Shown in pieces: positions 3 through 45,099 of a stretch of 64,000 nt of DNA. A model generated the notes under the pieces. That model searched no databases. It was not told where the DNA came from and worked only from the letters and a program-made list of their open reading frames with translations. The translations under genes and the position numbers were made by a program. The DNA comes from an uncultured bacterium (GTDB lineage: Bacteria; CSSED10-310; CALFER01): NCBI GenBank assembly GCA_937951895.1, contig CALFER010000076.1, positions 16,398 to 80,397 of the forward strand. The letters run 5' to 3'. How positions within the stretch are numbered: position 1 is the first letter of the stretch; every line of letters begins with the position of its first letter.

Positions 3-2558
3 TCCTCCTATAACGACATCGGCACCGGAGGCGATCTGGCCGATGTCGACATCAGCATCGATGGCGGCGCTACATGGACCAATTTGCTGCGTTGGGATTC
101 GGATCACAGCCCGGACGGCCCCGGTGAGCCTGTCAGTCTGGATCTGACGGCCTACGCCGGTCAAACGAGCGTGATGATCCGTTTCCACTATTACGTCGCC
201 ACATACGACTGGTGGTGGGAAGTGGACCAGGTCAGGGTTCGCGGATGCTACATCGCCGGTGCGGCACCGGATATCGACGTGACTCCGCTGACCATATCCC
301 GGACCCTCTATCCCGATCAGACCGCCGATCAGGCCTTCAATATCGCCAACGTCGGCCTGATACCGCTGAACTGGACGTTGGACGAGGGATGCGGCACTCC
401 GGTCGCCTGGCTGGCTCTCGACCCGGTCGCGGGCACGCTGCCGGTCGGGAACAACGTCGATGTGTCTGCGGGATTCGACAGCACAGGATTGACCGCCGGG
501 ACCTATACAACGACAGTTTGTGTCGATTCGGACGATCCGGATGAACCGGAAATCGTCGTCGATGTGACACTGATAGTCGCCAGCCCGCCGTTGATCGATG
601 TGACGCCACTCAGCCTGTCGGTCGATCTGTGTTCCGACGCGACCACAACCGAGCAAGTCACCATTTGCAATAGCGGCGCCGAACCCCTCACCTGGCAGTT
701 GCGGGAGACGAATCCGACTGCGCCCTTATCGAGATCCGGCAAAGTGACACCGAGGTTTCCGACCGATATCGGGTACGCCCAGGACATCGGATACGTCTCG
801 GATAATTTCGTCCAGTTCACTCTGAACGACTTTTCCGGCCAGACCGTTGTCGGGACCAGCACCAACCCTTATTATGGTATGGACTTCGATCCGTCCGCGA
901 CGACTCTGTACGCGCTCAACGACACAACGGATGAACTCGGTACAATCGACCTGAATACGGCTGCATTCACCGCTATCGTGTCCTGTCCGCCCGGCGGCGG
1001 CGCAGCCAATTGGACCGGGCTGAGCATCGATCCGGTCGACGGAAGCTTCTGGGGTTGCACAGGCACGGATCTCTACGCGATCGATCCCGCCACAGGAGCC
1101 TCGACTCTCGTCGGCCCGTTCAACGCCGGCGGCACGATGATCGAGATTGCGATCAACGCAGAAGGACTGATGTATGGCCATGACATCACGACAGATTCGA
1201 TCTACACAATCGATCGGGCTACCGGTGCAGCGACTCTCGTCGGTCCCACCGGTTATGCCGCGAATTATGCTCAGGGAATGGATTTCGACAACAGCGACGG
1301 AACGCTGTACATCTTTCTCTACCTGGGCTCCGGACAGAATGTCTTCGGTACGGTGGATCTGCTGACAGGTGCCGTCACGCCGCTGACCACCAGCAGTCCG
1401 CAGGGCGAGTTCGAAGGCGCGATCAAGGTGGCGTCCGACATCACATGGCTGAGCGAATCACCGATCTCGGGCACCGTCGCACCCGGCGACTGCGTGACAG
1501 TGGACGTCACGTTCGATTCGGCCGGCCTGATTCCCGGGGCATATTCTGCTGACCTTTTGATCATCAGCAACGATCCATACAATCCGCAGGTTTCAATCCC
1601 GGTCAGCATGACCATCGTCACGCCGATCGACGACGCTGACTTCACCTGGGATCCGTTCTCGCCGGTTGTCGGTGAGACCACTGCATTTGCCGGAACGGTC
1701 ATCGGAGGTGGCATTTCGATCGATATCAGTTGGGATTGGGGGGATGGCACAACGCCTGGAAGCGGATTGAACCCGACCCATATTTACGCCGCACCGGGGA
1801 TATTTATGGTGATCATGACGGCGAGCAACGCTTGTGGATCCGTCCAGGCGCAGTATGACCTGATTGTCGATGCGCCGACTGCGACCCCGACCGGAACGAT
1901 CGCACCCACGAACACACCCACACCGACAGCGACAGCGAGCAGTACCGCCACGAGCACACCGACCCATACACCCTCGTTGCCTCCGACTGCGACCCCCACG
2001 AGGACTCCCACGGCGACTCCCACACGAACGGCGACACCGACTTCGACCCGGACCGCCACGCCGACCGGAACGCCGACCGTTTTCCCGACGTCTCCTCCCA
2101 CCATTACTCCCACAGAAACCCCGGAGCCGCCGACCCCCACCATCGCGGAGCCAACCTGGACGCCAACCGAAACCCCCGTGCCTCCGACATCGACACCGGA
2201 ATGCAGTACGCTGGGAGTGACCCTGAGTATGCCGGGTGATCTGTTCAGTCAGGGTGATGTGTGTTGGGTGCAGGCAATCATCTGCAATGACGGGTCCGAG
2301 ACGATCAGCGGGATCCCGCTGGTTGTGGTGCTGGATCTGGCTGGATCCTTCTGGTTCTGGCCATCATGGACTCCGGCGTTTGACTATGAGTTGATGTCGT
2401 TCGAACCGGGGCAGACGATCGTCGAAATCATCCCGGAATTCATCTGGCCGATCTACAGTCCCGCGTTTAGCGATGCCGTGTTCTACGGAGCGATGCTCAA
2501 TCCGGAAATGACCGCCATCCTCGGAGAGATGGATACCTGGAGTTTCAGTTGGCTCTGA
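3..2558 (+). CDS. 5'-truncated secreted multidomain protein with beta-propeller-like repeats, a PKD domain, a Pro/Thr-rich linker and the novel ~115-aa C-terminal domain
   Basis: The reading frame is open from the first base of the window (no stop upstream of the Leu at 84), so the gene is 5'-truncated. A PKD-like motif '[21 protein letters not shown]' is present. There are repeated 'LVGP...G' propeller-like segments. A PT-rich linker is encoded at ~1870-2200. The C-terminal 115 aa match the domain shared with 10 other proteins in the window. Confidence 0.7.
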
Positions 2559-6791: not shown

Positions 6792-6804
6792 GAAGGTCTC
6801 CTTA

Positions 6805-10375: not shown

Positions 10376-11680
10376 TCAGGGTGCTGTGCGGACCAGCCGG
10401 AATCCGATCCAGAACCTTGTTGAGTTGGGTTCGAACAGCTGACGATTGGCGCATCGGCAAACTGCGGCAGAACTTCCCCATTCACCACCCCGGATGATCC
10501 GGTAATCGCCGGTCGATGGCCCCTGATAATCCGTAACGGCCCCCTCTGGATACTCGGCTTCATACCAATCCCAGACCCATTCGAACACATTTCCGAGTGT
10601 ATCCTTCAAGCCCCTCGGATTGGGTAGTTTCGATCCGATAACAGCAGCAGAGCCGCCCGCATTCGCGTGGTAGACACAATACTGCTCCAGAACCGTATGC
10701 GTGCCCTCTGTCGCCGAGTTGCAATTGCCGGCATGGTAGTTCGGCTCGTCGCAGAAAAAGGGTCCCTGTGTTCCGGCGCGGGTCATGAATTCCCATTCGC
10801 CTTCGGTCGGAAGCCGGTACCCGTTCGCAGTGAAATCACAGAAAAACGGACCGATCGAATAATTGGTCCGATCGACCGGAACCGTAAAGGAGGCATTTGT
10901 ATAGTAGCAACGGTTGTAGCCGTTCTGGAGGGACAGGAGATTGGCGAACAACACGGCATCATACCACGTGACCCGATTGATGGGATGATTCATGGTTGGA
11001 CTGTAATCGGTGTCGCTCGAATCCGACGTCAGTGTCGATTGAACTGCCTTGAGATCCGCCCACATCTGGCGGGATAATTCGGTTTCCATGACCAGGAGGT
11101 TCCGGATGAGTATATGTGTGAACGGATCTTCATCATCGCTCCGGCATGCTTCTTCATCGGGTGAGCCCTGCACGAAGGAACCGACTGTGATGGGGATCAT
11201 GTTTCCGACTGAAACGGGATGAGAAGGGTTCGGTGTGGGGGTGAATGGAGAACCGGACGTCCAGCTGAACGTGACATCAGCGAGGTTGCTGATGAGATTG
11301 CCCTGGGACACGACAGCGGCATAGAACAAGGCACCTGAAAACTCGCCTGCTCCGGATGGCCAGGCAAACTCCGGAATGATCGTCCTGACATCCTGGTAAT
11401 CAGCAGGAAAACTCGTCATCTCGAAATCGATATCCGGAGGATAGGTGACCCAACCGGGGAAAAACCAGAAATCACCGGTTCCGACAGTCAGAGCGACGAA
11501 GAGTTGTGCATCATTAATGGAAGAGCCGGTGTTGACGATGTCGAGAACCAATGAAAAGCCGACTCCGGGACTGAACGTATCTGTCGGCATCTGCAGGTCG
11601 AGTTCGATGTCTTGCGCCTGAATCGCAGTGCACACGGTCAACAAAATGAAACTCTGGAAAATACGATTTCTCGTGAACAT
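10376..11680 (-). CDS. Secreted FGE-sulfatase (formylglycine-generating enzyme family) domain protein with the novel ~115-aa domain at its N-terminus
   Basis: The start is refined to the ATG at 11680 (GGAGG SD), giving the signal peptide 'MFTRNRIFQSFILLTVCTAIQAQ'. The novel domain ('LQMPTDTFSPG...LFVALTVGTGDFWFFPGW...IIPEFAWP...FSW') follows. A short P/T linker and an FGE-type domain ('GYRLPTEGEWEFMTRAG', 'RGGEWGSSAAVCRC', 'GFRLVRTAP') complete the protein. Confidence 0.75.
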   Translation of the reverse strand: MFTRNRIFQSFILLTVCTAIQAQDIELDLQMPTDTFSPGVGFSLVLDIVNTGSSINDAQLFVALTVGTGDFWFFPGWVTYPPDIDFEMTSFPADYQDVRTIIPEFAWPSGAGEFSGALFYAAVVSQGNLISNLADVTFSWTSGSPFTPTPNPSHPVSVGNMIPITVGSFVQGSPDEEACRSDDEDPFTHILIRNLLVMETELSRQMWADLKAVQSTLTSDSSDTDYSPTMNHPINRVTWYDAVLFANLLSLQNGYNRCYYTNASFTVPVDRTNYSIGPFFCDFTANGYRLPTEGEWEFMTRAGTQGPFFCDEPNYHAGNCNSATEGTHTVLEQYCVYHANAGGSAAVIGSKLPNPRGLKDTLGNVFEWVWDWYEAEYPEGAVTDYQGPSTGDYRIIRGGEWGSSAAVCRCANRQLFEPNSTRFWIGFRLVRTAP

Positions 11681-11780
11681 CAAAACCTCCGTTGTTGATA
11701 GACCTTCGGTGGTCAATTCCCGGTTCCTGTTATCAATATGTAGAAGAGTCGTGAATTTTGCAAATGAAGTCGTCGGTGGC

Positions 11781-14184: not shown

Positions 14185-16119
14185 ATGAAGGTAACAGGGA
14201 AATCAGTCGGATCGATCGGATTCGGGTTGGTTCTGTGGATGATGTGGACCCCGAAACTCCATGCCATGCATAGTCCGCAATGGATTTGGGAAGACCCCAG
14301 GAGCTCACTTGGGATGAATCTCGATATGAGCGCATCGGGCAATGAGATGGTGGTGGGCACATCATCCGGGGATGACAACCGCATGGTGGTGGCGTACTTC
14401 AACCAGGAATCGTCCTTTCCCGTGGCTCGAATCGAGTATCCCGGCGCCGGGAGCATCGGCAGCGTATCGATTTCCGATGATGGATTCCGATACGCGTGTG
14501 CGTTCGGTCATGAGATTCATGTTTATCAGGCGCCCGACACGGAAATCTTCACGTTCCGGGATAACGACCTGCTCCTGTCTCAAGTCGCTCTGAACACGGA
14601 CGGCAGCAAACTGGTCGTGACCAGTCTCCACAATCAATCTCTGCCCGGACGTGTCCTGTTCTTCGACGTGGATACCCAGGCATTGCTGTGGCAGGACGAT
14701 CCGTCGGAGGAAGTATCCGTCAACGGCGCGTACGCTCCGTCACGAATCTCAGCGGACGGCACCCGTGTGCTGGTGCTGTTTGCGGGCCGTCAGATGGGGA
14801 ACCCGGCGTATGTCGTGCTGTATCAGACCGACTCGGTCGACCCCGGAGCGCCCGTATGGATCAGCCAACCACTGGAAGCCTGGGGGCGTCAGATCGAGAT
14901 GTCTGCGGACGGGAACTTCTTCATCACGATCCTGGCAAACATCATCTCGTGTTTCGATATGTCGCCGCCGATAGCCGGCGTTAAAACACCGCTCTGGGAG
15001 GCAGAGGGGAGTGGATATGATACATTGAATCACTTCGGAGGCATTTCCGACGATGGTTCGGTCGTGGCCCATTTCGGTGAAACCTCGACCGGATCCTGGG
15101 TTGAAATCTACGACGGCGCGAATGGATCGATCCATTGGATGTCCTACGTGTTTCTGGAAGAGATAAGAGGGTGTGTCTCGGGAGACGGAACCCGTGTCGC
15201 GTATTCATCCTGGGAGAATCCCGAACCGGTGAATCACTTTGTGTATGATATCGGGGAGGGATCGGTGATCTGGTCAGAACCCGGTTACGGTCTGGTTGCG
15301 ATGAACACGACAGGTGATCGGCTTTTTCTTACGGATGGCAGTGACGACGAATCACCGCCGACGCGATTGATGAGGCTGGAAGATAACCTTCCGCCGCAAT
15401 GCAGTATCGAGTCGCCCCTGCCGGGCGAGACAGTATCAGGGATGGTGCATCTCACCGGTTTAGTCGCCGATGTCGATGATCTGATCGAACGTGTCGAGGT
15501 ATTGTTGCCATCCGGTGTGACGCTCGCGAACGCACCTTCAGGAGCTTCGGGAGAATGGTCGGCGGATATCGACGTGTCTGCTTATGCGGGAAGCCTGTTG
15601 CTGATCAAAGCCCGTGCGATCGATACCCGGTACAAGCATGGTCAATGGGCGGAGGTTGGTGTCGCTGTCGTGCCCGATGGGACTCCGACTCCGGGACCCA
15701 GCGCAACATCGGCCGCCGAGTTTACTCCAACCCCCACCCCACCGTCTCCAGCCGGGCTCACACTGTCGCTGGCTCTCTCACAGAACCTGTTCATGGCCGG
15801 GGATGCCTTCTGGCTGGACGCGATGATCGACAATCCGCAGGAACCCCTCACACAAGTTCCATTGGTCGTGCTGCTCGAGATCCACGGCGCATTTTTCTGC
15901 TGGCCGTCCTGGTCGGCGCTGGAAGTTTCCGGCGAGGGATTTGATTACTCCTTGCGCAATATCCCACGCGGGACGCATCGATTCGAGATCATCCAGCCGT
16001 TCTTCTGGCCGGAAACCGGTGGTTGGGGAATCGGACTCCTTTTCTATGGGGTTTTACTCGATCCTCAATTCTCAAACCTGTTGTGCGATATCGATGTCGA
16101 GATGTGGTCGTATCGCTGA
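14185..16119 (+). CDS. Secreted beta-propeller-like repeat protein with Ig-like region, P/T linker and novel C-terminal domain
   Basis: An N-terminal hydrophobic signal is followed by repeated strand-like segments. The linker is 'PDGTPTPGPSATSAAEFTPTPTPPSP'. The C-terminal 115 aa ('PLVVLLEIHGAFFCWPSW...FFWP') match the shared domain. Confidence 0.6.
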   Translation: MKVTGKSVGSIGFGLVLWMMWTPKLHAMHSPQWIWEDPRSSLGMNLDMSASGNEMVVGTSSGDDNRMVVAYFNQESSFPVARIEYPGAGSIGSVSISDDGFRYACAFGHEIHVYQAPDTEIFTFRDNDLLLSQVALNTDGSKLVVTSLHNQSLPGRVLFFDVDTQALLWQDDPSEEVSVNGAYAPSRISADGTRVLVLFAGRQMGNPAYVVLYQTDSVDPGAPVWISQPLEAWGRQIEMSADGNFFITILANIISCFDMSPPIAGVKTPLWEAEGSGYDTLNHFGGISDDGSVVAHFGETSTGSWVEIYDGANGSIHWMSYVFLEEIRGCVSGDGTRVAYSSWENPEPVNHFVYDIGEGSVIWSEPGYGLVAMNTTGDRLFLTDGSDDESPPTRLMRLEDNLPPQCSIESPLPGETVSGMVHLTGLVADVDDLIERVEVLLPSGVTLANAPSGASGEWSADIDVSAYAGSLLLIKARAIDTRYKHGQWAEVGVAVVPDGTPTPGPSATSAAEFTPTPTPPSPAGLTLSLALSQNLFMAGDAFWLDAMIDNPQEPLTQVPLVVLLEIHGAFFCWPSWSALEVSGEGFDYSLRNIPRGTHRFEIIQPFFWPETGGWGIGLLFYGVLLDPQFSNLLCDIDVEMWSYR

Positions 16120-16344
16120 ACACCGGCATCGCTTCAAATTCTATCGTATCGGACGCTCCAGGATTTGATCGAACCGATTGATCTCGATCGATTGGTCTGA
16201 TAGATTCACAATAAACTGATCGCGAGACCCTGTTGGAAGTCGCGTCACGATCATCTCCGATTCCATTTGGAGATGGATTGGATGAGACGGGAACTGCGAT
16301 TCGGGTTGTCGCGGTATTCAGACACGATGCGAGGAGGGCGAGTC

Positions 16345-19191
16345 ATGAAGGTAGCGAGTACCATGTGTTTGATCCCGATCATGATCTTCGGAATGATCCC
16401 GATTTGTGATGCATCTTCCTACAAGGTTCGTGTTCCGCATACGATTGAATTCATGTGTGAAGAGGGAACCGGAGGTTATACCGGATATTGGGGGCTCAAG
16501 GTCGTTTGGGGACCCTATCCGGATGCTGCCGGGTATCAGGTGATTTCGCATCATGGCGCGTATGGGGGCGGTTTAGTTGCAGGCAATGTACATGAATGGA
16601 GCATCGGAGGGGGGAGCCCGGTCGCACCCGGCGGATGTCCTGCGATCGAAGCGTCGGTCAATCCCGCCTGGTATCAGAATATCTATGAAGTATGGGGAAC
16701 CTTTCCCGAAGGCGGGAATCTCGAATTGCATAAAACAGACAACATATACGGTGCTGCCCATCCCGGCGACGAAGTGCGATACTTCCTGATCTACAAGAAT
16801 ACCGGGAAGTATCCGTTGCTCGATTGTATCGTCGAAGAAACATGGCCGGACTACATGGAGTTTGTTGCCGGAGGCAGTTCAACCGGTCCGAATACCGTGA
16901 TCTGGAACTTTGGTACGCTGTATCCCGGACAATGGGTCCAGGTCGAACTCGTGTTGCGAATCAGTGAAGATCTCCCGCAATCGATCACGGAAATCTATAA
17001 TGTCGCGGTCGCACATCCCGCTCCTTCACCCTCGCCGGCACCCGGCGGCACACCCGGGTCGGGTATTTCGACCGTCAGCGGCTACGCCGTTTCGCACTGC
17101 GATGCGTTGCGATGCAACTTCGTGACGGGCGACACGGATTGGATCGATCGACCGGACTTCTCCAGTTATCAGGATCTCGTTCCCTATGACGTCGTGCGGG
17201 GGAATGATGATGTGTTGCTCAATTCCGGCTTTACCTCGTTCAACCATACTGTCGCGACAGGAACGCTTCTCCTGTATCAGGGCGGTTTCCACCTCACGAA
17301 TTGTCCGGATCTTCCGGATCAGGTGTTATCCGAGATCATTCTCGACACGCCCGCGTCCATCGAGCATGCTGTATCCGGTATCATGAGCCCAGACGATCAT
17401 GTCAGAGTGCTCGGTCAGTTCCTCACCGTGGAAATTCATGAAGGGCGATATACGCTCAGTGACGATGCGGCCAGCGAATTCGTGGAGGTTGAATCCGGAG
17501 GGATCACGGTGGTCGACCCGCTCGGCGATCGGCATGACCTGACGTCGGGTGACACGTTTACATGGCCCCCGTTGATCGGTCCGAAGAACGGCAGCAACGG
17601 CCCGACGCTGACCGGAACCTCACCGGATCCATTCGGTTCGGTCGAAGTCGGTCATATCGCGATTCAATACGAGTTCGATGAAGCGGTGTCTTCAATCGGC
17701 AATGCGAGCAGTTTTGCGATCGGAGAGACGTCCGGTGTGTGGCATGGGTCGGGCACCCTGACCGATCTCGCATCCTATGTTTCCATCTCCTGGAATGCCG
17801 AAAACACCATTATGACTCTTACAGTAAACTCGACATATCCATGGTTCGGTATGGATCTGGCGGCAGGAATGACCCTCATCACCGGATTGCATCTCGTGGA
17901 TGTCACCGGTCCTTCCGGCACGACACCCGAGATCTATCAGACGATTCCGATCTTTGTCACATCAACGACTTCGTCGCTCGGATGGGTGAGTTGCGAGTAT
18001 GAGCACTTCAGTTTTATCACTCAGGGAAATGACCTTCTATCTCCGGGCGCATCCTGGCATGTCCAGCAACTTCCGTCGCTTCCGGGAGCTGTCCCTGCCG
18101 GTATGTATCAGGCCAGTCCAGCTTTCGAGTTTCAATTCGACGGAACCGTCCTGGATCACTACTGGCTTCAACTCCGTCCCGGTACGCCATGGGGACTTCC
18201 GCAGGGTAACGCGGGCGGTGGACTCTATGTGTGGAGTGGTGCGGAATGGGTCATGCAGCGCGAAGGATTCGGGCTCGAGTGGACCTGGTCGAACCCGCTG
18301 ACGGATCCCCATCAGATCATCGTGCTGCTTTCGGTGTGCGAGCGTCCTGAAGCACCCGGAATTGTTTCGATCGTTCCGAACGCGGGGAGTGGTCCCGTAT
18401 CACCGGATAGCGCAATCGTGATTCAGGTGGCGGCCCGTTCCGGAATCCGTGAACATACAGCGGATATCCGCATCAACGGACAGCGGACGCTTTCATTCGA
18501 TCCGGCAACCGGACAGCTCCAGGGATGGATCGTTGAAGAAAACGATGGGGTGACGACGTTCACCTATACACCGGAAACAGAGTGGCAGGACGGGCAGATC
18601 GTCTTTGTCAGTTACTATCTGGCAGCTCGCTTCGGTTTGATCTCCACGGAAGGGTCGTTTGCATTCCAGGTGGTCTGTTCGGATCCGACCGATGGCGATG
18701 GGGACGGGATGCCGGACAAGTGGGAGACAGCGAATGGAACGAATCCGTCCGGCTTCGACCGGGATGCGGACCCCGACGGTGATTCGCATGCGAACATTAC
18801 AGAATATACACATTGCAGCAGCCCATCGTCTTCGATCTCGTTGCCCGCATTTCCACGGATCGATATCGTCGCGAATCAGGAAGCGTACTATGCCTCCGAT
18901 GAGATGCTCGTCAAGGCACGTGTCACCAGCGGACCTGTCTCCCTGCCGGTCGATCTGTATGTCGCACTCGAGCTGTATGGCGGGTTTTACTTCTGGCCTG
19001 CATTTTCGACCGACGTCGTTCCGATATCCTTCACTATGCCATCGGGAATCGATGTTTCATTCGATCTGTTCTCATATACCTGGGACACGATTCCTGCCGC
19101 GATGACTCTCACGTGGTATGGTGTGTTTGTCGAACCTCAATCCATGTTTCTTTACAGCCTGGATTCACTCTCGATGATTCTGGCGCTCTGA
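16345..19191 (+). CDS. Large secreted protein with DUF11-like Ig-like domain, thrombospondin-type-3-like Ca-binding Asp-rich repeats and novel C-terminal domain
   Basis: The start is refined to the ATG at 16345 (GGAGGAGGG SD), giving the signal 'MKVASTMCLIPIMIFGMIPICDA'. The protein carries 'DGDGDGMPDKWETANGTNPSGFDRDADPDGDSH'. The C-terminal domain is 'PVDLYVALELYGGFYFWPAFS...FSYTWD'. Confidence 0.6.
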   Translation: MKVASTMCLIPIMIFGMIPICDASSYKVRVPHTIEFMCEEGTGGYTGYWGLKVVWGPYPDAAGYQVISHHGAYGGGLVAGNVHEWSIGGGSPVAPGGCPAIEASVNPAWYQNIYEVWGTFPEGGNLELHKTDNIYGAAHPGDEVRYFLIYKNTGKYPLLDCIVEETWPDYMEFVAGGSSTGPNTVIWNFGTLYPGQWVQVELVLRISEDLPQSITEIYNVAVAHPAPSPSPAPGGTPGSGISTVSGYAVSHCDALRCNFVTGDTDWIDRPDFSSYQDLVPYDVVRGNDDVLLNSGFTSFNHTVATGTLLLYQGGFHLTNCPDLPDQVLSEIILDTPASIEHAVSGIMSPDDHVRVLGQFLTVEIHEGRYTLSDDAASEFVEVESGGITVVDPLGDRHDLTSGDTFTWPPLIGPKNGSNGPTLTGTSPDPFGSVEVGHIAIQYEFDEAVSSIGNASSFAIGETSGVWHGSGTLTDLASYVSISWNAENTIMTLTVNSTYPWFGMDLAAGMTLITGLHLVDVTGPSGTTPEIYQTIPIFVTSTTSSLGWVSCEYEHFSFITQGNDLLSPGASWHVQQLPSLPGAVPAGMYQASPAFEFQFDGTVLDHYWLQLRPGTPWGLPQGNAGGGLYVWSGAEWVMQREGFGLEWTWSNPLTDPHQIIVLLSVCERPEAPGIVSIVPNAGSGPVSPDSAIVIQVAARSGIREHTADIRINGQRTLSFDPATGQLQGWIVEENDGVTTFTYTPETEWQDGQIVFVSYYLAARFGLISTEGSFAFQVVCSDPTDGDGDGMPDKWETANGTNPSGFDRDADPDGDSHANITEYTHCSSPSSSISLPAFPRIDIVANQEAYYASDEMLVKARVTSGPVSLPVDLYVALELYGGFYFWPAFSTDVVPISFTMPSGIDVSFDLFSYTWDTIPAAMTLTWYGVFVEPQSMFLYSLDSLSMILAL

Positions 19192-20271: not shown

Positions 20272-21786
20272 TTAATGCGACTCGTCCCAACTGAAATCCC
20301 AGGAATCCATCGCGCCGACCAGAAATGAGAACTCCGCATCGGTCATGCCTGCATACCAGATGAGTCCTGACACGCTACCGGCGTTGTCGGGAAAACTGAA
20401 CGGAGGAACGACCACCTGTTCCGTGATTCCGGGCATCAGGGATTCGAAGAGATAGTGATCGAATGCCGTGAATCCGGGCGCGAAGTAGTACTGGCCGAAT
20501 GCATCCAGAACGACAAAGAGGGGGACATGCTCCATGGCCTGTGGTCCGGGATTGCACACATGGACGATGCAGGAACAGGGATCACCGGGGTGAAAAAAGT
20601 GCGACGGCATCCACAGTTCGACTCCGAGACTCCCGCAGGACGCCGTCGGAGATGCTGAGGGCGTCGCGGTGGGTGTGGGCGTTGCCGTTGGAATGGCAAC
20701 TACAAGATAATGATACCCCATATCGACCATTCCAAGATCCGTAATCTGATCCGTCCGGGTGGTATATGAATCGAGACAGGATGGCGGTTCAACACCTGGA
20801 AAGCAAGTGTCCTGTGCCGGACTGTCACCCGAATCGATGCATGGGCTGTCCTGTGCCTGTCCGGCCGAGGTTGACGACAGGTAATATTCGCCAAGCGGGC
20901 CTGGCGTGAAGAGCGGTATTGCATCGATGTTCCCATCCCCTTCATAACCGCCTCCGATGTTCGAGTAACGAATGGTCGGATTCCCCCCGATGTTGGTTCC
21001 ATAATTATGAACGATCGAGTTGACAATCAAAGCTGATCCCTGAATGCCTCCGGTTCCAGAAAGGGACGCTTCTCCACTATTGTTCACGATCGAGCAGTTG
21101 CTGATATGCGCCGTATCACACCGTATTCCTCCAACTGCTCTCCCCGCCGGATTGTCCCATGCCGCCGCGTCATTATCTGAAATGATGCAATTGAAGAACG
21201 ATGGATCGCCTCCGATCGCCCAGACACCGGCCACGACTTCAGCGTCGAACAGATACCAATCTTCGCATTCGATCATGTTTTGCGTGATCCAACAGCTCAG
21301 AAAGATGGCCTGCGACGACCCGAGATAGACACCCGCCCCGGCATGCTCACCATCTCCGCACCAGGCCGAATTGTAGATGATTTTGCAGTTCGAGATGACT
21401 GGAGAGGCACTTTCGATCTGCATGCCGGTTCCGTAATCGCCATACTGAAGAAACTGCGTGATGGTAAAGCCGTTCAGACGCGATGCATTCCCTTCTTCAT
21501 GATCAAAAATGAATCCGATGTGGTTGACCGCATAGTTGCCGTTGACGATGGTGTCGTCAGGACCGGTTTCCGAGGTGACGGTGATGGCTTTTCCGAGAAA
21601 ACGAATATCTCTGTTGCCGTCTCCGGAATAGACACCCGGAGCGACCAGAACGGTATCATAATCCCCGGCGGCATCGATACCGGCCTGGATGGTCGGTTGA
21701 TCTCCCGGCACCCGGATCACCAGAGCGTGTCCGGCAACAGGAAGAAGCAGAATCAGTGACAGGATGAATAGTGTGTGTTTCATCAC
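20272..21786 (-). CDS. Secreted right-handed beta-helix (adhesin / choice-of-anchor-Q-like) protein with novel C-terminal domain
   Basis: The signal peptide is 'MMKHTLFILSLILLLPVAGHA'. 'IRVPGDQPTIQAGIDAA..DTVLVAPGVY' is the typical start of beta-helix adhesin-like proteins. Parallel beta-helix repeats are present. A post-helix module 'YYLSSTSAGQAQDSPCIDSGD...TTRTDQITDLGMVDMGYHY' follows. A PT linker and then the C-terminal domain complete the protein. Confidence 0.7.
   Translation of the reverse strand: MMKHTLFILSLILLLPVAGHALVIRVPGDQPTIQAGIDAAGDYDTVLVAPGVYSGDGNRDIRFLGKAITVTSETGPDDTIVNGNYAVNHIGFIFDHEEGNASRLNGFTITQFLQYGDYGTGMQIESASPVISNCKIIYNSAWCGDGEHAGAGVYLGSSQAIFLSCWITQNMIECEDWYLFDAEVVAGVWAIGGDPSFFNCIISDNDAAAWDNPAGRAVGGIRCDTAHISNCSIVNNSGEASLSGTGGIQGSALIVNSIVHNYGTNIGGNPTIRYSNIGGGYEGDGNIDAIPLFTPGPLGEYYLSSTSAGQAQDSPCIDSGDSPAQDTCFPGVEPPSCLDSYTTRTDQITDLGMVDMGYHYLVVAIPTATPTPTATPSASPTASCGSLGVELWMPSHFFHPGDPCSCIVHVCNPGPQAMEHVPLFVVLDAFGQYYFAPGFTAFDHYLFESLMPGITEQVVVPPFSFPDNAGSVSGLIWYAGMTDAEFSFLVGAMDSWDFSWDESH
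20280..20650. repeat. ~370-nt direct repeat (~90% nucleotide identity) with 21865..22235, covering the C-terminal domain coding regions of two tandem paralogs
   Basis: Direct comparison of the two stretches shows long identical runs, e.g. 'ggaatccatcgcgccgacca', 'gaactccgcatcggtcatgcctgcataccaga' and 'gatagtgatcgaatgccgtgaatccgggcgcgaagtagtactggccgaatgc'. Confidence 0.85.
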
Positions 21787-21854: not shown

Positions 21855-24647
21855 CTACGGATGATCTCCCCAGCCGAATTCCCAGGAATCCATCGCGCCG
21901 ACCAGGAATGAGAACTCCGCATCGGTCATGCCTGCATACCAGAAGAGTCCTTCCACGGTGCCGACATTTTCGGGGAAGCTGAACGGAGGAACGACCACCT
22001 GTTCCGTGATTCCGGGCATCAGGGACTCGAAGAGATAGTGATCGAATGCCGTGAATCCGGGCGCGAAGTAGTACTGGCCGAATGCCTCCAGAACGACGAA
22101 GAGAGGGACATGCTCCATGGCCTGCGGGCCGGGGTTGCACACCCGGACGATACAGGAACAGCTATCACCGGGGTGGAAAAAGTGTGAAGGCATCCACAGT
22201 TCCACTCCGAGAATTCCGCAGGGCGCCGTCGGAGAAGCAGTCGGCGTTATGGTGGGAGAGGGGACAGCCGACTGCGTCGACTCGGGTGTCGATGTGGCAG
22301 GCGCGGTCGGCGAAGGCGTGGCCGAGATCGTCGCCGTCGGTGACGGGCCTGCCGTGCGTGTTGGCGTCGGAGTCTCGGATACGTTCAATGGGTAGTGGTA
22401 TCCCATGTCAACCATGCCGTTATCGCAGACTCGGTCGGTTCGGGTCGTCATGGAGTCCATGCAGATTTCCTCATTGGAAATGTCGTGACACACATCGACT
22501 GCCGATGCACTGCCTGTTTCGAAGCAGGGGCTGTTCGATTCCTGCCCCGAGGCGATCTGGCTGAGGCAGAACGCGTCGATCGGCCCATTGGTGAACAGGG
22601 GATCCTGATCGATGTTGCCGGATCCCGCCCATCCGCCCTGAACATCGGAGGAGATCACGGTCACGAACTGCGTGTCTCCGCCAATCGGACTTGGTTGCCC
22701 GCCCCAGAGAATACTGTTCTCGACAGTGATCGCCGGCGAATCATGACAGAACAATGCGCTTCCTGTGGTGTCGGCCGTGTTGAAAGCCAGTGTGCAGGAG
22801 CTGATGCCGGTCGTCGTACTGCTGCTGAAGTAACACGCGCCTCCCGAGTCGGATGCATGATTCGAATCGATCAGGCAACCCCAGATGTCGGCCGAAACAT
22901 CCCAGCCGCCGAAGATCGCTCCGCCATTGGAGCCGGCTATGTTTCCAGACAGCACGGAACGGGTGATAACCGCGAGGACACATTTCGCGCCGAGATCGAT
23001 TGCGCCTCCATTCTGGCCGGCCGCGTTGTCGATGAACCGGCACTGGTCGAACGTCTGCAGACTGAACATCCGGTTGCTGTACCCTCCACCGGATCCCGTT
23101 TCAGCGCCATTTCCGATGAAACTGCATCTCAAAAACGAAGGGTTCGCTTCACCGTCGTTCTGAATCCCGCCACCGCTTTCATATGCGGAATTGCTGGAGA
23201 GAATGCAATCGGTAAAAGCGGGTGAGGAGTTCTCGATGTACACCCCGCCGCCCGATTCCATGGCCGTGTTGTTTTCGATCCGGCATCTGAGAATCGAGGT
23301 GTCGCTTCTGGTGAGATAGATCCCGCCTCCGGCTCGCGCTCTTCCGCCACGGATTGTCAGATCCTGAATCACCGCGGAGTGATCGATATGCCCGTAGAAG
23401 ATCCGCTGGATGTCTCCGGCATCGATGATGGTCGATTCGATGCCGCTCCCGGCAAGGGTCACGTGATTGACGATCGGAAGTGGAAATGATTCACCGGTCG
23501 TCATGGCGGAGAAGACACCGGGGCCGATATGAATCACGACGGGAAGATCCGGGGATCCCAGGATTCGTTCGAGTGCGTGCCGGAGGGTGAGGAAGGACGA
23601 TTCCCATGAGAGCCCGCTGTTGAGGTCGTTTCCGGTGCAGGACACATAGACATCCTGGGTGATCGCGTCGGTCTGACTCGTGCAACCGGTCCGATCGAAC
23701 GCGTCCGGTGGCGAAACATAATAGTCGGAATCGTGCAGACCGCTGAATCCATTGTATTGAGCATTGAACGGCTCCTGAGGATCGAAAACCATCGAGGCCA
23801 GATCGGCACCGCCTCCCGCCTGGTTATCGCTGAAGGAATTGCCATCCGATGGACTGCCTCCGATGATCGGAGTCGCTCCGTAGTTGCAGAACAATGCGCC
23901 ACCCAGATGATCGGCGACATTGAGTTGAAACTCGCAATTCCGTATCTGTCCCGAAGCCCAGGAATCGAAAAAGAGGGCACCCCCGTACAGGGTCGCCGTG
24001 TTGGAAATGAAAAATGAAGAAAAAATCGTCGGATTGGAATCGTACGTCATGGAAGCGCCTGCGCCGAGTTCGGCGGTGTTGTTCCGGATGATGCAGCACG
24101 TGACAGAAGCGCCGGATTGCGAGAAATTGAAACCACCGCCGTCCCGGGAGGCGAAATTCTGTTCAATGTAACAATCCACAATCTGGGGTGCGGCATTGCG
24201 CAGACACGCCACTCCCGCTCCATACGTGGCGGTGTTGAGGATAATTCTGCAATTGACGATGCCGGGTGACGAGGCGTAATCGCAGAGAATCCCTCCGCCA
24301 CGTCCATCGATCCAGCCGTTTCGGATCGTGAACCCTTCCAGAGTGGCTTGAGAGGTTTCTCCACTCGTGAAGATAAACCCGCGGTGAGGGTCATCGATCG
24401 ATCCCTGACAGTCGATCGTGCAGGATGTGTAACCCCATTCCGAAACAACCCGGATATTCTTGCCCTGGAAGCTGATGTCACGGTTTCCCGGGCCGGTGTA
24501 ACAGCCTGACATCACCTGAACCGTGTCTCCCGGTTGCGCAACGTCGATACCGGCCTGTATGGTCGGTTGATCGGCGGGAACATGGATTGTAACGGCTTGT
24601 ACAAGCGGACCTATCAACAGGGCGGCAAGGATGGCCAGACGATTCAT
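21855..24647 (-). CDS. Large secreted right-handed beta-helix protein (two beta-helix blocks) with novel C-terminal domain
   Basis: The start is refined to the ATG at 24647 (perfect AAGGAGG SD), giving the signal 'MNRLAILAALLIGPLVQA'. 'IHVPADQPTIQAGIDVAQPGDTVQV' follows. Many 'GGGIY/GGAIF' beta-helix repeats are present. The C-terminal 120 aa are ~90% identical to those of the neighbouring paralog. Confidence 0.7.
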   Translation of the reverse strand: MNRLAILAALLIGPLVQAVTIHVPADQPTIQAGIDVAQPGDTVQVMSGCYTGPGNRDISFQGKNIRVVSEWGYTSCTIDCQGSIDDPHRGFIFTSGETSQATLEGFTIRNGWIDGRGGGILCDYASSPGIVNCRIILNTATYGAGVACLRNAAPQIVDCYIEQNFASRDGGGFNFSQSGASVTCCIIRNNTAELGAGASMTYDSNPTIFSSFFISNTATLYGGALFFDSWASGQIRNCEFQLNVADHLGGALFCNYGATPIIGGSPSDGNSFSDNQAGGGADLASMVFDPQEPFNAQYNGFSGLHDSDYYVSPPDAFDRTGCTSQTDAITQDVYVSCTGNDLNSGLSWESSFLTLRHALERILGSPDLPVVIHIGPGVFSAMTTGESFPLPIVNHVTLAGSGIESTIIDAGDIQRIFYGHIDHSAVIQDLTIRGGRARAGGGIYLTRSDTSILRCRIENNTAMESGGGVYIENSSPAFTDCILSSNSAYESGGGIQNDGEANPSFLRCSFIGNGAETGSGGGYSNRMFSLQTFDQCRFIDNAAGQNGGAIDLGAKCVLAVITRSVLSGNIAGSNGGAIFGGWDVSADIWGCLIDSNHASDSGGACYFSSSTTTGISSCTLAFNTADTTGSALFCHDSPAITVENSILWGGQPSPIGGDTQFVTVISSDVQGGWAGSGNIDQDPLFTNGPIDAFCLSQIASGQESNSPCFETGSASAVDVCHDISNEEICMDSMTTRTDRVCDNGMVDMGYHYPLNVSETPTPTRTAGPSPTATISATPSPTAPATSTPESTQSAVPSPTITPTASPTAPCGILGVELWMPSHFFHPGDSCSCIVRVCNPGPQAMEHVPLFVVLEAFGQYYFAPGFTAFDHYLFESLMPGITEQVVVPPFSFPENVGTVEGLFWYAGMTDAEFSFLVGAMDSWEFGWGDHP

Positions 24648-24817
24648 GGTAACCTCCTTATGTTCTGTGAAAACAAATTTGCAAAAAATATGCCATGTAT
24701 TCAATTCACCAACCGGGAAAAATAATCGGAAACGTGTTATAAAATGGATATGGCGTGAGCCGGATCGTGATTTCATTATCGGAGCAGTCAGTTTCCGGAA
24801 TTTTGCAAGGAGGAAAC

Positions 24818-27469
24818 ATGCGTGATGCCACAGTGCGGCTCATCACCCTCTGCCTGATTATAGGCATCGGGATCCCCAAAAGTTACTCTGCCGAACTCCA
24901 TGTCCCTGCTCAGTTCGCGACCATCCAGGCTGCCGTCGATGCGGCAATCCCGGGTGACACCGTCTTGGTTGCAGATGGCACCTGGAGCGGTGTCGGAAAC
25001 GTGACCATTCATCCGGATGGCAAAGCCATCACGATCCGGTCAGCATCAGGGGATCCCGAGGCTTGTACCATCGACGGTTCGGGAATCGATCAGGGATTTG
25101 TCTGCGCGTCGGCTGAAACGCGTGACACGGTCATCATGGGATTCACCTTGTATCGATGCGGACGCGATCCGAACCTTGGACCCGTCGACGGTGCCGGTAT
25201 TTCGTGCGTGAACGCGTCGCCGACGATTCGGCATTGCCGGTTTGTGGACGGGTATGCATCGTGGAGTTATCCGGGACCGGGAAGTGGCATGTATGGTTCC
25301 GGAGGAGCCATCGCCTGCTCCGACGGCGCGGCTCCCGAGATTGCCGACTGCGTATTTATCACCTGCATAGCCGGCGAATCCGGCGGCGCGATTCATGCCC
25401 GGGACGCGGCCCCCGTGATCCTGGATTGCGCCTTCACGGACAACCGGTCGTATGGCCGCGGAGGCGCAATCAATCTGAAGGACTCGCCTGCGGTAATAAA
25501 CGGTTGCGTCTTCACGGACAACCGCGCTGTGAACGGAGACGGAGGTGCACTCTGTCTGGATGCATCGTCAGCCGAGATCACATTGAATGAATTCACGCTG
25601 AACCGATCCTTGAGAGGCGGAGCAGTCGCATGCCTCGGCGCAACCCCGATCATCGGCGGGGCAAGTGATCTTGGGAATCGTTTCGACCGTAACTATAGTG
25701 GCTCCGGAGCCGACCTGTTCGCCCAGGTGCCTGCTTCCACCATCGATGCCCGATTCAATACGTTCACCGGGCTCATGATGTCGGATTACTGTGTTTCACC
25801 TCAGGAAACCTTCGATCTGTCCGGCTCTCAGACCACCGCGACTCCGATACAATCCGACGTCTTCGTGGCTCAGGATGGCAGTGACGAAAACAGCGGCCTG
25901 TCAATCGATGCACCGTTCCGCACGATCCAGTTCGCGCTCAGTCGGGTGCTGCCGACCGAAGCCTCTCCGATCACCATCCATATCGCCTCCGGCGAATACT
26001 CGGCTTTCACGACGGGTGAGGCGTTCCCTCTGCCTCTGTTGAGCCACCTCTCGTTGTCCGGTGCGGATCAGTGCCGCACCCATCTGAACCCCTCATATCA
26101 ATCGGTGTGCCTGTTCGGTCATCATGATACGGATGTCCGCATCGACGGGATCGATATCCGGGGAGGCAGCGGTGAATCCGGGGGCGGGCTGCATGCCAGT
26201 GACTGTCAGGTGGAACTCACGAATCTGACGGTCCGTGAGTCGGTTGCAGAAAAGGGCGCCGCCATGTATCTGTCCGGAACGGATGCCTCGATGAGATCCG
26301 TTCTCATCATGGACAACTACAGCCGTTACATGGGAAGTTCCGCCGGCGTGGTCGCCATCGGAGGGCATCTCCGGATACTCGACAGCGTCATCACCCGCAA
26401 TGCTTCCGACGGTCCCGGCGGCGGTGTGTATGTTCAGGGAGCCGCTCTGATCGCCTCCTGCAGGATCACCGAAAACGAAGCGCGTCGTGCCAGTGGCGGC
26501 GGTGTTTTCTGTGCGGACGGCCCTCTGGAAATGGTGAATTGCGAACTGATCCGGAACCGGGCGATTCTCGGAGGCGGGGTCTTCGTGACCGGCCAATACG
26601 ACCTGCTCAATTGCCTGATCGCGGAAAACACCGCGGTACTGTCCGGTGCCAGTTTCCAGTCATTCGATGCCTCGGGTCTCATCCGGCACTCGACCATCGC
26701 GGCCAATACAACCAGCGGATCGGTCGTTTCGAGCGTTTTCTTCGAACAAAGCGATTCTACCGTGAGTGACTCGATTGTCTGGAACGAATCGGGAGCCGAG
26801 ATCCAGGTCGAAGACGCACAACTCTCGGTGACGAATTGTGATGTGAGGGGAGGTTTCGAGGGAGCCGGGAATATCGACAGCGATCCGCAATTCACAGCGA
26901 TGCCGATGTCGAACTATTATCTGAATACCGGCGAGTCAGGTGATCCGATCAGCCCCTGTATTGATGCCGGTGGCAAAATGGCCGCTGAGTGCACCTATTC
27001 CGGATTGTGGGGGGAGATCGACCTGGAGAGGTGGACCGCCGGCTCCGATTGGTTGCGGGATTCCGGAGTTGTCGATATCGGCGTTCACTGGGATCATGCT
27101 CTTTTCAGCGGAGTCAGACTGGATCTGACGACCCGCATGCTCCATCCGGGAGATCGGCTGCGGCTGGATGCGGTTGTGCTCAACCACAGCGGCGTTGATT
27201 GGAGCGACAGTCGCCTTTTCGTCATTCTGGATGTCTACGGCAGTTACTGGTTCGCACCGTCATGGGCGTACATGGACGATGGTTTCGACTGGTATTCGAT
27301 GGATCTGGCCCCCGGTGCAAGGAACATCGTCAGCGTGATTCCCGATACCGTCTGGCCCGAAGGTGTCGGCAGCGCGGACAATCTGGCGTTCTGGGGTGGC
27401 CTCACGGATGGCGCTTTCCTCAATCTCCGCGGGGATTTCGACAGGGTCATCTTCGGGTATCGGGACTGA
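24818..27469 (+). CDS. Large secreted right-handed beta-helix protein with novel C-terminal domain
   Basis: The start is refined to the ATG at 24818 (AGGAGG SD), giving the signal 'MRDATVRLITLCLIIGIGIPKSYSA'. 'LHVPAQFATIQAAVDAAIPGDTVLVADGTW' follows. Beta-helix repeats are present. The C-terminal domain is 'LFVILDVYGSYWFAPSW...VWPEG'. Confidence 0.7.
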   Translation: MRDATVRLITLCLIIGIGIPKSYSAELHVPAQFATIQAAVDAAIPGDTVLVADGTWSGVGNVTIHPDGKAITIRSASGDPEACTIDGSGIDQGFVCASAETRDTVIMGFTLYRCGRDPNLGPVDGAGISCVNASPTIRHCRFVDGYASWSYPGPGSGMYGSGGAIACSDGAAPEIADCVFITCIAGESGGAIHARDAAPVILDCAFTDNRSYGRGGAINLKDSPAVINGCVFTDNRAVNGDGGALCLDASSAEITLNEFTLNRSLRGGAVACLGATPIIGGASDLGNRFDRNYSGSGADLFAQVPASTIDARFNTFTGLMMSDYCVSPQETFDLSGSQTTATPIQSDVFVAQDGSDENSGLSIDAPFRTIQFALSRVLPTEASPITIHIASGEYSAFTTGEAFPLPLLSHLSLSGADQCRTHLNPSYQSVCLFGHHDTDVRIDGIDIRGGSGESGGGLHASDCQVELTNLTVRESVAEKGAAMYLSGTDASMRSVLIMDNYSRYMGSSAGVVAIGGHLRILDSVITRNASDGPGGGVYVQGAALIASCRITENEARRASGGGVFCADGPLEMVNCELIRNRAILGGGVFVTGQYDLLNCLIAENTAVLSGASFQSFDASGLIRHSTIAANTTSGSVVSSVFFEQSDSTVSDSIVWNESGAEIQVEDAQLSVTNCDVRGGFEGAGNIDSDPQFTAMPMSNYYLNTGESGDPISPCIDAGGKMAAECTYSGLWGEIDLERWTAGSDWLRDSGVVDIGVHWDHALFSGVRLDLTTRMLHPGDRLRLDAVVLNHSGVDWSDSRLFVILDVYGSYWFAPSWAYMDDGFDWYSMDLAPGARNIVSVIPDTVWPEGVGSADNLAFWGGLTDGAFLNLRGDFDRVIFGYRD

Positions 27470-34930: not shown

Positions 34931-35226
34931 ATCAATGCTCCATTTGTTTTCCACATTGATTATCCGCTGTACGTCCTGAATGTAGCAGAAATCAGTTCCC
35001 GATGGAACGGCATTTATACACGGCACCATAATACCTCGCGAACCCTTATGCAATTGCACCACCGTGTGCCTGACTCGGCGACGGACGTGTAGAATGATCC
35101 ATGCGCAAAGATAAATGTCGCCGATTGCAATTCATTTTACATGTAAACTGATCGGGACTATTGTAGGTTAATGCGCTGCTCGTGCGTGTAGGATGATTTT
35201 TTTTTGATCGATGAGCGAGGTTTATC

Positions 35227-40233: not shown

Positions 40234-41967
40234 ATGAAAGCGTTTTTACTCGCGGCAAGCATCATGATCGTCATCGGATCGCCGGTATCGGCCGCCGTCA
40301 TCCGAGTGCCCTCGGATCAACCGACCATCCAGACGGGACTGGATGCAGCCCTGTCCGGCGATATCGTTCTGGTCGCTCCCGGAGTGTATACCGAGTCGCT
40401 CGAATGGCCCGGTCTCGCAGTATTGACCCTTCGAGGCGAGTTTCCCGAAAACCGTCCGGTTGTCTCGGCACCCGCAGATAAGCGGTGTCTCCACTACACA
40501 CCGGGAGTCTCGGGTACGGAGATGCGGCTCGAGCATGTCGTGTTTGAAAACGGTGCTCCTGTCAATCAATCCGGAGGAGCCTTGTACGTGACCGGTTGTC
40601 GGGTGCAGATTGACGATTGCGTGTTCCGGAACAATGACGCGGGGCAGGACGGTGGCGGCGTCTATTTCTCGACATGTGAGGTCTCGATCGCAAACTCGAC
40701 GATCTCGGACAACCATTCCATCGATCATGGGGGAGGCGGGTACTTCGCCGATTGCGGCATCGCGCTCCTCGACTGCACCGTCGAGCGAAACGATACGGGA
40801 GTTGCCGAGCATGTGTACAGCGATGGTCTCGGGCTGTATCTGAACGATTGCCACGGGTCGGTCTCGCATTGCGCGATTCGGGATCATGGCAATGCTTACA
40901 TCGATGGCTCCGGGATCTATGCACGGGGTGATATCGATTTTGTCGGCAATACATTCGAGCGCAACGAACAGCAGGGCAGTGACTATTACGGCGGTGCGCT
41001 GAATGTCTGGGGATCCTGCCTGGTCCGGAACAATCTTTTTACGGACAACGTCGGGATCGGATCGGCGATCGTCGCGGGAGGTGGTGTGGACATCGAGAAT
41101 TGTCTGTTTCTGGGAAATGCGAGTTCATTCCCGGGAACCGGGGCGATTCTCGCGCTGGATCAGACCGATGTCTCTTTCTGCACTTTTGTCAGCAATACGT
41201 CTGCCGGTGTGCAGGTGCTCAACAGCATGGATCCGGTGCCGATCCGGCACTGTATCTTCTCCGGCAATCAGGTCGGTATCGCGAATTACAACGGCAATTC
41301 ATCGGTTCATTCCGGATACAACGCCTTCTGGAACAACGGGATGGACTATAGTGCCGTGAACCCCGGAGCCGGTGATCTGCGAGGATCGGATCCACTGTTT
41401 GTCACGGGGTCTCAAGGCGCGCATTATTTGAGTCAAACAGCTTCGGGGCAGAGTCAGACGAGTCCGTGTGTGGATGCGGGGGATCCCGAGACCGGGGCTT
41501 CGCCCGGTGGGACGACCCGTACCGACGAGGTGCCGGATGAAGGCAGAGTCGATCTCGGGTATCATTTTTCTGCTCCGGATTCACCTCCCGTTCCCGCGCC
41601 CACTGTGACACCGGCCACGTGGACAGGTGTTCGACTGACGCTTCCCGACACGGATCTTCAGGCGGGGGATCGGTTCGTTCTGACCGCGACCTGCCGGGCG
41701 CCGGCCGGGCATGCAGCCGCGGATCTGTATGTCGTTCTGGATGTCTTCGGCGAGTATTTTTTCTATCCGTCCTGGTCGAATACTCCGGGATCCGAAAGCA
41801 TCGTGCTGGCACCGGATGCGGCGGTCGAGCGGAGAATTCTGGATTTCGTCTGGCCTGCGGGTGATGTCGGAGTTGTGACCGACCTGCAATTCCGGGGAGC
41901 CATTCTGGAACCCGGGACAACGTCCGTGATCGGGGAGATCGATTCCGTTTCGTTCGGGTATCGGTAG
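40234..41967 (+). CDS. Secreted right-handed beta-helix protein with novel C-terminal domain
   Basis: A GGAAGGAG SD is present. The signal is 'MKAFLLAASIMIVIGSPVSA'. 'VIRVPSDQPTIQTGLDAALSGDIVLVAPGVY' follows. Beta-helix repeats are present. A post-helix module 'HYLSQTASGQSQTSPCVDAGDPE...TTRTDEVPDEGRVDLGYHF' follows. The C-terminal domain is 'LYVVLDVFGEYFFYPSW...FVWP'. Confidence 0.7.
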   Translation: MKAFLLAASIMIVIGSPVSAAVIRVPSDQPTIQTGLDAALSGDIVLVAPGVYTESLEWPGLAVLTLRGEFPENRPVVSAPADKRCLHYTPGVSGTEMRLEHVVFENGAPVNQSGGALYVTGCRVQIDDCVFRNNDAGQDGGGVYFSTCEVSIANSTISDNHSIDHGGGGYFADCGIALLDCTVERNDTGVAEHVYSDGLGLYLNDCHGSVSHCAIRDHGNAYIDGSGIYARGDIDFVGNTFERNEQQGSDYYGGALNVWGSCLVRNNLFTDNVGIGSAIVAGGGVDIENCLFLGNASSFPGTGAILALDQTDVSFCTFVSNTSAGVQVLNSMDPVPIRHCIFSGNQVGIANYNGNSSVHSGYNAFWNNGMDYSAVNPGAGDLRGSDPLFVTGSQGAHYLSQTASGQSQTSPCVDAGDPETGASPGGTTRTDEVPDEGRVDLGYHFSAPDSPPVPAPTVTPATWTGVRLTLPDTDLQAGDRFVLTATCRAPAGHAAADLYVVLDVFGEYFFYPSWSNTPGSESIVLAPDAAVERRILDFVWPAGDVGVVTDLQFRGAILEPGTTSVIGEIDSVSFGYR

Positions 41968-42064
41968 ACGGTTCGGGATTCAATCTGCGGACATTATACA
42001 ATCAGCACCTGTTCGACTATAGTATATCCTCCGGGCATTTCGCTTGTGGAGGAGGCCTTCCGGA

Positions 42065-45069: not shown

Positions 45070-45099
45070 CTTATCACTTTCCGGAAAGGAGGGCGCATC

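Follow-up and report, generated by a model that had tools for sequence, protein, structure and literature searches.

Eleven proteins encoded in a 64-kb stretch of DNA from an uncultured bacterium of the candidate division CSSED10-310 (the window, by which we mean the whole 64,000 nucleotides analysed) carry the same terminal domain of about 115 residues. This domain is a new, unannotated family of terminal beta-sandwich modules on secreted proteins, a type of module of which other examples are already known. From the architecture of its carriers we infer a role in sorting or anchoring, and the reading we prefer, with a probability of about 0.42, is that the domain is a docking or anchoring module that holds the exoproteome on one shared partner in the cell envelope. 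The sequence shown above encodes one of the carriers, protein E, a 504-residue beta-helix-type protein (20272-21786, minus strand) with copy E of the domain at its C-terminus (20284..20628; profile hidden Markov model (HMM) E value 8e-47). Protein E has no Pfam or NCBIfam annotation, is identical in sequence to the database protein P0006 and was assigned to the beta-helix group by its similarity to the adjacent carrier, F.

An earlier note on this DNA had listed eleven copies of the domain, and translations of the open reading frames (ORFs) together with HMM searches recovered all of them, in essentially the same places. When an HMM made from the ten C-terminal copies was run over the window in six frames, it found exactly eleven copies and none further, with E values of 1e-35 to 1e-53 for those ten and 3.5e-21 for copy B, which belongs to an FGE-sulfatase protein. 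An external HMM built from 156 database proteins was almost independent of the window, as only one of its members (P0004) comes from the same organism, and it also recovered 11 of 11 copies, with E values from 8e-47 to 7e-7, copy D being the weakest. Ten of the copies stand at the C-terminus of their protein, 0-5 residues ahead of the stop codon, and copy B directly follows a signal peptide. The consensus motif read previously from the window agreed with the family consensus obtained from the database relatives, GVtL.MPs..F.PGD.C.C.V.vCNp......PLFVILDVYG.YfFAPsF...FDyY.....PG.....VlPeF.WP.gaGsAsGI.WYAAmTdP.iT.LfG.md.f.FGW. All eleven copies, each at a protein terminus, thus matched a profile of the family, whose conserved motifs are MPS..F.PGD.C, PLFV.LDV.G.YFFAP.F, WP..G, WYAAMT and FGW.

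The domain had been described as fitting no named family, and as unlike the C-terminal domain (CTD) of type IX secretion system (T9SS) substrates as far as its motif could tell. Both statements held. Searches of ten copies against Pfam-A and NCBIfam (hmmscan, E<=10) returned only noise (MG4 at 0.29 and GalB at 0.04), and at that threshold there was no match to the T9SS CTD models (TIGR04183/PF18962 and TIGR04131/PF13585) or to FlgD-Ig, CARDB, PPC, cohesin, dockerin, SLH and the short C-terminal sorting signals. Likewise, a profile run against every PDB sequence gave noise only (E>0.6). The tripartite signals of the LPXTG, PEP-CTERM, GlyGly-CTERM and MYXO-CTERM types were rejected as candidates because the copies end in a beta-strand (F.W) followed by 0-5 polar residues; they have no hydrophobic helix at the end, and no NCBIfam sorting-signal model matched them. 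Neither of the two outcomes that had been named beforehand as speaking against the proposal, a match to an established family and mainly internal placement in cytoplasmic proteins, was observed.

The AlphaFold (AF2) model of copy E, with a pLDDT (predicted local distance difference test) score of 96.6, is an all-beta, immunoglobulin (Ig)-like sandwich of eight strands of at least three residues and one two-residue strand. The closest structural neighbors of the model were CARDB, GH2 Ig and macroglobulin domains, and the likeness to them was only generic; the conserved motifs MPS..F.PGD, PLFVILDVYG.YFFAP.F, WP.GAGSA, WYAAMTDP and FGW are particular to the domain. CARDB (PF07705; PDB 3idu/2kl6) and DUF11 domains usually occur as tandem internal repeats, whereas the domain described here is single and terminal, and the CARDB model had found no match. 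PPC (PF04151) and the P-domains of proteases resemble it in being C-terminal beta-sandwich extensions of secreted hydrolases. However, the PPC model did not match either, and the domain is larger, belongs to a single lineage and is attached to cargo ranging far beyond peptidases.

The domain had been taken to be specific to the window, which was contradicted by its distribution. An index-free HMMER scan of 1.84 billion representatives of 50%-identity clusters identified 2,568 proteins at E<=1e-3 (2,161 at E<=1e-10 and 359 at E<=1e-30), and the domain is lineage-wide in the candidate division CSSED10-310. Word-indexed homologue searches with two profiles had given only 4 and 2 matches, and the yield of the index-free scan shows that these low numbers were a limit of the word index. 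The relatives that we inspected were the best 150 of the 2,568 HMMER matches. In addition, a scan of GTDB (one genome per species) with the strict pattern LD[VA][YF]Gx[YF][FY]FA gave 55 confirmed loci in 8 metagenome-assembled genomes (MAGs), and every MAG with a taxon in its title was from CSSED10-310 (Zod_Metabat.419,.252,.479 and.1246, and CSSed10_310). As far as named genomes show, the domain is restricted to this candidate phylum, an uncultured and apparently Gram-negative lineage beside the Acidobacteriota (PMC8248873). The host organism is apparently diderm, as the window carries a lipid A acyltransferase gene and LolCE-like genes. Within the lineage the domain is much expanded: the related loci (907 kb) contained 122 copies, one MAG had at least 48 distinct copies and Zod_Metabat.419 had at least 23. 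The carriers are annotated by NCBI as "hypothetical protein".

The carriers share a common layout. All of the complete carriers in the window begin with a plausible Sec signal peptide, and the claim that carriers are secreted was supported more widely by an N-terminal hydrophobic, signal-like segment in 92% of 96 complete carriers versus 39% of neighboring non-carriers. A lipoprotein tether was rejected as an alternative anchor, as a lipobox-like signal was present in only 8 of the 96. The Pro/Thr-rich (PT) linker reported for the window copies was likewise a general feature; immediately ahead of the domain, 63–73% of carriers had a 20-residue stretch in which P/T/S made up 60% or more, versus 0.5% of control positions. 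A PT stalk followed by a terminal domain is the layout expected of a stalk with a terminal anchor. The domain had been said to lie always at a protein terminus, and this was nearly so: 115 of the 122 copies in the 907 kb were C-terminal, as were those of 148 of the 156 database representatives (at most 15 residues from the C-terminus), with some copies being internal.

Some of the non-C-terminal copies occur in a recurring arrangement, upstream of an FGE-sulfatase domain, in window protein B and in the database proteins P0108, P0152 and P0160. Protein B has the domain at its N-terminus, P0152 and P0160 have it sandwiched between a passenger and the FGE domain, and P0108 is an N-terminally incomplete fragment. 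Such positions would be tolerable for a binding module and should not be for a signal that requires a free C-terminus. There were also carriers with no cargo: P0054 consists of a signal peptide, a PT linker of about 100 residues and the domain, and P0047 of a lipobox, a Gly-rich region and the domain.

Most of the passenger types proposed for the window were identified, namely beta-helix/NosD/Chlam_PMP, PKD/BACON, DJ-1/PfpI and FGE-sulfatase regions. The exception was the SBBP propeller, for which there was only a weak NCBIfam match, in the DJ-1 protein. The weak NCBIfam matches of passengers were to surface proteins. A Pfam census of 79 full-length homologues added Peptidase_S8, C1 and C25, FG-GAP, BNR, Kelch and sortilin-type propellers and, among enzymes, metallophosphoesterase, transglutaminase and a PETase-like hydrolase. 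Judged from these domain assignments, the passengers are mutually unrelated and of an extracellular, surface type, and their breadth argues against the domain being a substrate-targeting carbohydrate-binding module. The "choice-of-anchor" families, which we sought among the passengers as indirect evidence of an anchor slot, gave no match there. The beta-helix carriers E, F, H and J have a second motif in common, T[RK]TD...D[MLI]G[YFV]H[YFW], just before the PT linker (residues 342–359 of E). It was present in 11 of 115 carriers in the related loci versus 1 of 573 non-carriers, and probably caps the C-terminal end of the passengers in this beta-helix family.

The domain is conserved to a degree that its passengers are not. 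Over 25,183 pairs of proteins whose passengers could not be aligned, the identity of the domain averaged about 44%, and in 93% of the pairs with passengers of 25–40% identity the domain was the more similar part. At 31 positions of the domain conservation was 80% or higher. The DNA of the domain in the adjacent paralogues E and F is 91% identical over 300 nucleotides (20286–20585 vs 21869–22168), whereas the proteins are only 41–45% identical outside it, which suggests gene conversion, a recent domain swap or strong purifying selection. The identity floor of about 44%, the E/F domain identity and the 31 conserved positions together point to a module that meets one common partner. Each of three cysteine positions is at least 90% conserved across the family. 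In the window, the cysteine just before strand 1 was present only in copies that also have those at positions 20/22 and 27 (A, E, F, J and K); all three are missing from B, C, D, G and I, and a single cysteine is left in H. This pattern would fit a dispensable extracytoplasmic disulfide. The possibility of the domain being a substrate of the FGE-type proteins was rejected, as inspection of the sequences showed no CxPxR formylglycine motif.

These conservation data also bear on whether the domain has any sorting role at all. It could be an ordinary accessory Ig-like domain, spread by domain shuffling in one lineage, that aids folding or stability, acts as a spacer or PPC-like extension, or binds carbohydrates or metals of environmental substrates. 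The generic fold fits such a role, N-terminal, internal and C-terminal positions all occur, and no partner machinery was found beside the carriers. Spacer Ig domains, however, are usually tandem and internal, whereas this domain is single and in about 94% of cases terminal, and its identity floor and number of conserved positions would be unusual for a mere spacer. The passengers, which include proteases, propellers, DJ-1, phosphoesterase and FGE proteins, are also too varied for a module that binds one substrate, and neither the PPC nor the CARDB models matched. We consider an accessory domain of this kind improbable.

In the docking reading that we prefer, carriers would be exported by Sec by means of their N-terminal signal peptides, and the flexible Pro/Thr-rich stalk would join the passenger, whether an adhesin-like beta-helix, a protease, a propeller or another enzyme, to the module. 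The module would fold outside the cytoplasm, probably with a disulfide staple in many copies, and would then dock non-covalently onto one envelope partner, which could be either a surface glycan, for example lipopolysaccharide or exopolysaccharide, or a protein of the outer membrane or of a scaffold. As a result, a large and varied exoproteome would be kept at the cell surface, with the module acting in the manner of dockerins, SLH domains and other wall-binding modules and not as a cleaved signal. The parallel with the dockerin-cohesin and SLH systems is that of a single, mostly terminal module on unrelated extracellular enzymes behind PT-rich linkers, whose position is occasionally flexible and whose high similarity among paralogues is consistent with one common receptor. 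It is an analogy of function only. Dockerin (a Ca-binding duplicated segment) and SLH are helical, whereas the CSSED10-310 domain is all-beta, and none of the ten copies searched matched dockerin PF00404, cohesin PF00963 or SLH PF00395 in Pfam at E<=10. Clustering of the carrier neighborhoods identified no scaffoldin-like partner.

The T9SS offers a different precedent for much the same layout. If the domain were a C-terminal signal for translocation or sorting at the outer membrane, as the T9SS CTD is, a dedicated translocon of CSSED10-310 would recognize the folded sandwich in the periplasm. Cleavage of the domain could follow, with the cargo either set free or linked covalently to the cell surface. 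T9SS CTDs are likewise C-terminal Ig-like beta-sandwiches on Sec-exported proteins with varied passengers; they are lineage-restricted, there are tens of carriers per genome, and typical T9SS substrate types (Peptidase_C25, S8 and Pmp-like beta-helices) occur among the carriers described here. The position of about 94% of copies at the extreme C-terminus and the need of an apparently diderm host for a route across the outer membrane are also in keeping with this explanation. However, the T9SS CTD models of Pfam and NCBIfam did not match even at E<=10, and the two domains appear to differ in several respects. The T9SS CTD is a compact 3+4 seven-strand Ig-like sandwich of about 67–108 residues (67–88 in the CTDs that are cleaved), and CTDs within one species are 7–27% identical (PMC11285876), compared with about 115 residues, 8–9 strands and paralogues of about 44% identity in the present family. 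Moreover, the window FGE-sulfatase proteins were rejected as GldK/PorK homologues, scoring 47–57 bits against a cut-off of 350 and matching PvdO and EgtB equally well. The T9SS is known only from Bacteroidota and related groups; CSSED10-310, which sits beside the Acidobacteriota (PMC8248873), is not known to have one, and we saw no T9SS core gene in the window or in the carrier neighborhoods. The N-terminal or internal copies that recur ahead of FGE domains, the cargo-less carriers and the long PT stalk, which beside a cleaved signal would have no obvious purpose, all speak for docking and against a signal dependent on a free C-terminus. On balance, we regard a T9SS-like signal as the main rival of docking, though a doubtful one.

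Several observations nevertheless weigh against docking. About 94% of copies lie at the extreme C-terminus, ending 0-5 residues past the FGW motif, and a translocation signal would look alike. The cargo, with its C25 peptidase and Pmp-like beta-helices, closely resembles that of the T9SS, and docking by itself gives no account of the passage of large folded proteins through the outer membrane. Within the domain, high conservation is about as frequent at strand positions (20 of 76) as at loop positions (11 of 44), and this comparison, in which we sought a conserved ligand-binding patch, brought none to the fore. A receptor candidate was also lacking: all-against-all clustering of 573 non-carrier ORFs in 58 loci, around 115 carriers, found no transporter, sortase, exosortase, T9SS-like protein, secretin or processing enzyme recurring beside the carriers. 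Finally, the taxonomic restriction is based on a strict motif scan and a few named proteins.

In a bolder reading, the domain would be the recognition element of an undescribed sorting system, specific to the phylum and distinct from the T9SS, that moves a large exoproteome across or onto the outer membrane and perhaps attaches it there. The sandwich of about 115 residues would then be the signal read by a translocon or attachment enzyme of that system. We think this rather unlikely. A further candidate for the export route is the type II secretion system (T2SS), with the domain as a common folded tag by which substrates would be selected in this lineage. The T2SS exports folded, disulfide-bonded proteins from the periplasm, and the window encodes an ATPase of GspE/PilB type, whose N-terminal domain is a c-di-GMP-binding MshEN, beside a GspF/PilC-type platform protein (5736-8976, minus strand). 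However, this pair scores at least as well as PilB/PilC of type IV pili, no secretin, pilin or pseudopilin genes are adjacent to it, and T2SS genes were not enriched near carriers. To our knowledge, moreover, the known T2SS substrates share no linear or modular tag, and we judge a T2SS tag to be very improbable.

The only recurrent neighbors of the carriers were Ser/Thr kinase-TPR, radical-SAM-like, sulfatase, FGE-sulfatase and ECF sigma proteins. The most recurrent was a Ser/Thr kinase with TPR (11781-13988, minus strand, in the window, and in loci L004, L010, L031, L051 and L055), found in 6 loci of 5 genomes. With identities of 28–33%, this recurrence may just reflect a large paralogous family of kinases. 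An S41 peptidase adjoining carrier H (42044-43513) was dismissed as a partner as it did not recur at other loci.

FGE-sulfatase proteins were found near carriers in 4 loci. The two in the window (10376-11824 and 33578-35062, both on the minus strand) are paralogues that lie 23,205 nt apart and have DNA stretches of 73–80% identity; the terminal domain is N-terminal in the first, and the second has a CarboxypepD_reg domain. A repeat search near the FGE genes for variable repeats of the diversity-generating retroelement type gave only the similarity between these paralogues, reverse transcriptase not having been searched for.

Turning to the remaining copies in order, copy A (2211..2555, plus strand; HMM E 4.6e-41) ends the ORF 3-2558, whose passenger has Kelch, PKD, BACON and Ig-like regions by Pfam. 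Protein A is truncated by the edge of the window and is 2,082 residues long in full on the 108-kb contig DAIMJD010000016.1 of NCBI GCA_036722415.1, which contains the window; ENA ERZ724081-83 also include an assembly of this DNA. Copy B (11258..11608, minus strand; HMM E 7e-24), the sole N-terminal copy in the window, is carried by ORF 10376-11824, in which a signal peptide (MFTRNRIFQSFILLTVCTAIQA) is followed by the domain, a short PT linker and the FGE-sulfatase domain (PF03781, residues 207–479). The true start of this protein is likely the ATG at 11680, and the gene call P0004 begins MFTRN. P0004 also has an artificial tail, EIGRASCRERV, resulting from an Illumina adapter (AGATCGGAAGAGC...) that forms the end of the contig from the same organism (L001 5123-5168; ENA ERZ724083 NODE_13476).

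Copy C (15757..16116, plus strand; HMM E 9e-23), which is Cys-less, ends ORF 14185-16119 behind a passenger that is unannotated bar a weak Big_7 match. Copy D (18856..19176, plus strand) ends ORF 16267-19191, with a DUF11/TSP3 passenger, and is the most divergent of the copies, with E values of 6.8e-7 for the external HMM and 1.6e-35 for that of the window copies. Four copies follow beta-helix passengers: copy F (21867..22211, minus strand; HMM E 7e-46) at the end of 21855-24776 (NosD/Chlam_PMP/DUF1565), copy G (27107..27463, plus strand; HMM E 3e-29) at the end of 24755-27469 (Beta_helix/DUF1565), copy H (41623..41964, plus strand; HMM E 6e-21) at the end of 40234-41967 (Beta_helix/NosD) and copy J (57704..58045, plus strand; HMM E 7e-44) at the end of 56123-58051 (Chlam_PMP/POMP repeats and DUF1565). 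Copy I (52969..53313, plus strand; HMM E 7e-41) is the C-terminus of 51082-53319, which has the DJ-1/PfpI region and the weak SBBP-like propeller, and copy K (60343..60693, minus strand; HMM E 6e-36) that of 60337-63702, a 1,121-residue protein with an essentially unannotated passenger.

Two genes overlap the 3' ends of carrier genes. A regulator composed of BTAD, a STAND NTPase (NB-ARC/AAA_16) and TPR (53297-55981, minus strand) is encoded between carriers I and J, and 23 nt at the 3' end of its gene are shared with the 3' end of carrier I. On the strand opposite carrier K, the stop of the gene at 58173-60353 (plus strand) overlaps the 3' end of the carrier. The product of this gene, of 726 residues, has many ankyrin repeats and a metallo-beta-lactamase fold (Lactamase_B_3), an unusual architecture for a bacterium.

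Elsewhere in the window, a 909-residue ORF without a Pfam or NCBIfam match (35227-37956, plus strand) overlaps by 4 nt the start of a sulfatase gene (37953-40160, plus strand), and this overlap suggests that the two are translationally coupled. The pair is kept in Zod_Metabat.1246 (L053, 5342-8194 and 3133-5340), with protein identities of 44% and 51%, and is again near a carrier. An operon-like run at 44953-50588 (plus strand) encodes a Nitro_FeMo-Co (NifX/NifB-C-like) protein, two CbiA/MinD-type ATPases with 4Fe-4S ferredoxin inserts, a radical SAM protein and a NifU-N/Mrp(ParA) fusion, and looks like a metallocluster assembly module of an anaerobe.

Conserved terminal domains on unrelated secreted proteins have repeatedly led to sorting machineries, such as the sortases, the exosortases, rhombosortase and the T9SS. 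The domain described here folds confidently in prediction, occurs in thousands of metagenomic proteins and is much expanded in a phylum of which no member has been cultured. Once it is defined as a family, a large part of the predicted CSSED10-310 exoproteome could be annotated, and phylogenetic profiling toward the partner would have a handle. It would also become possible to test in what way proteases, adhesin-like beta-helices and other enzymes are displayed on the surface of an uncultured diderm lineage. Should the partner prove to be a new translocon or attachment enzyme, this would be a new secretion or sorting system; should it be a glycan or a scaffold, the domain would represent a Gram-negative analogue of dockerin- or SLH-type display.

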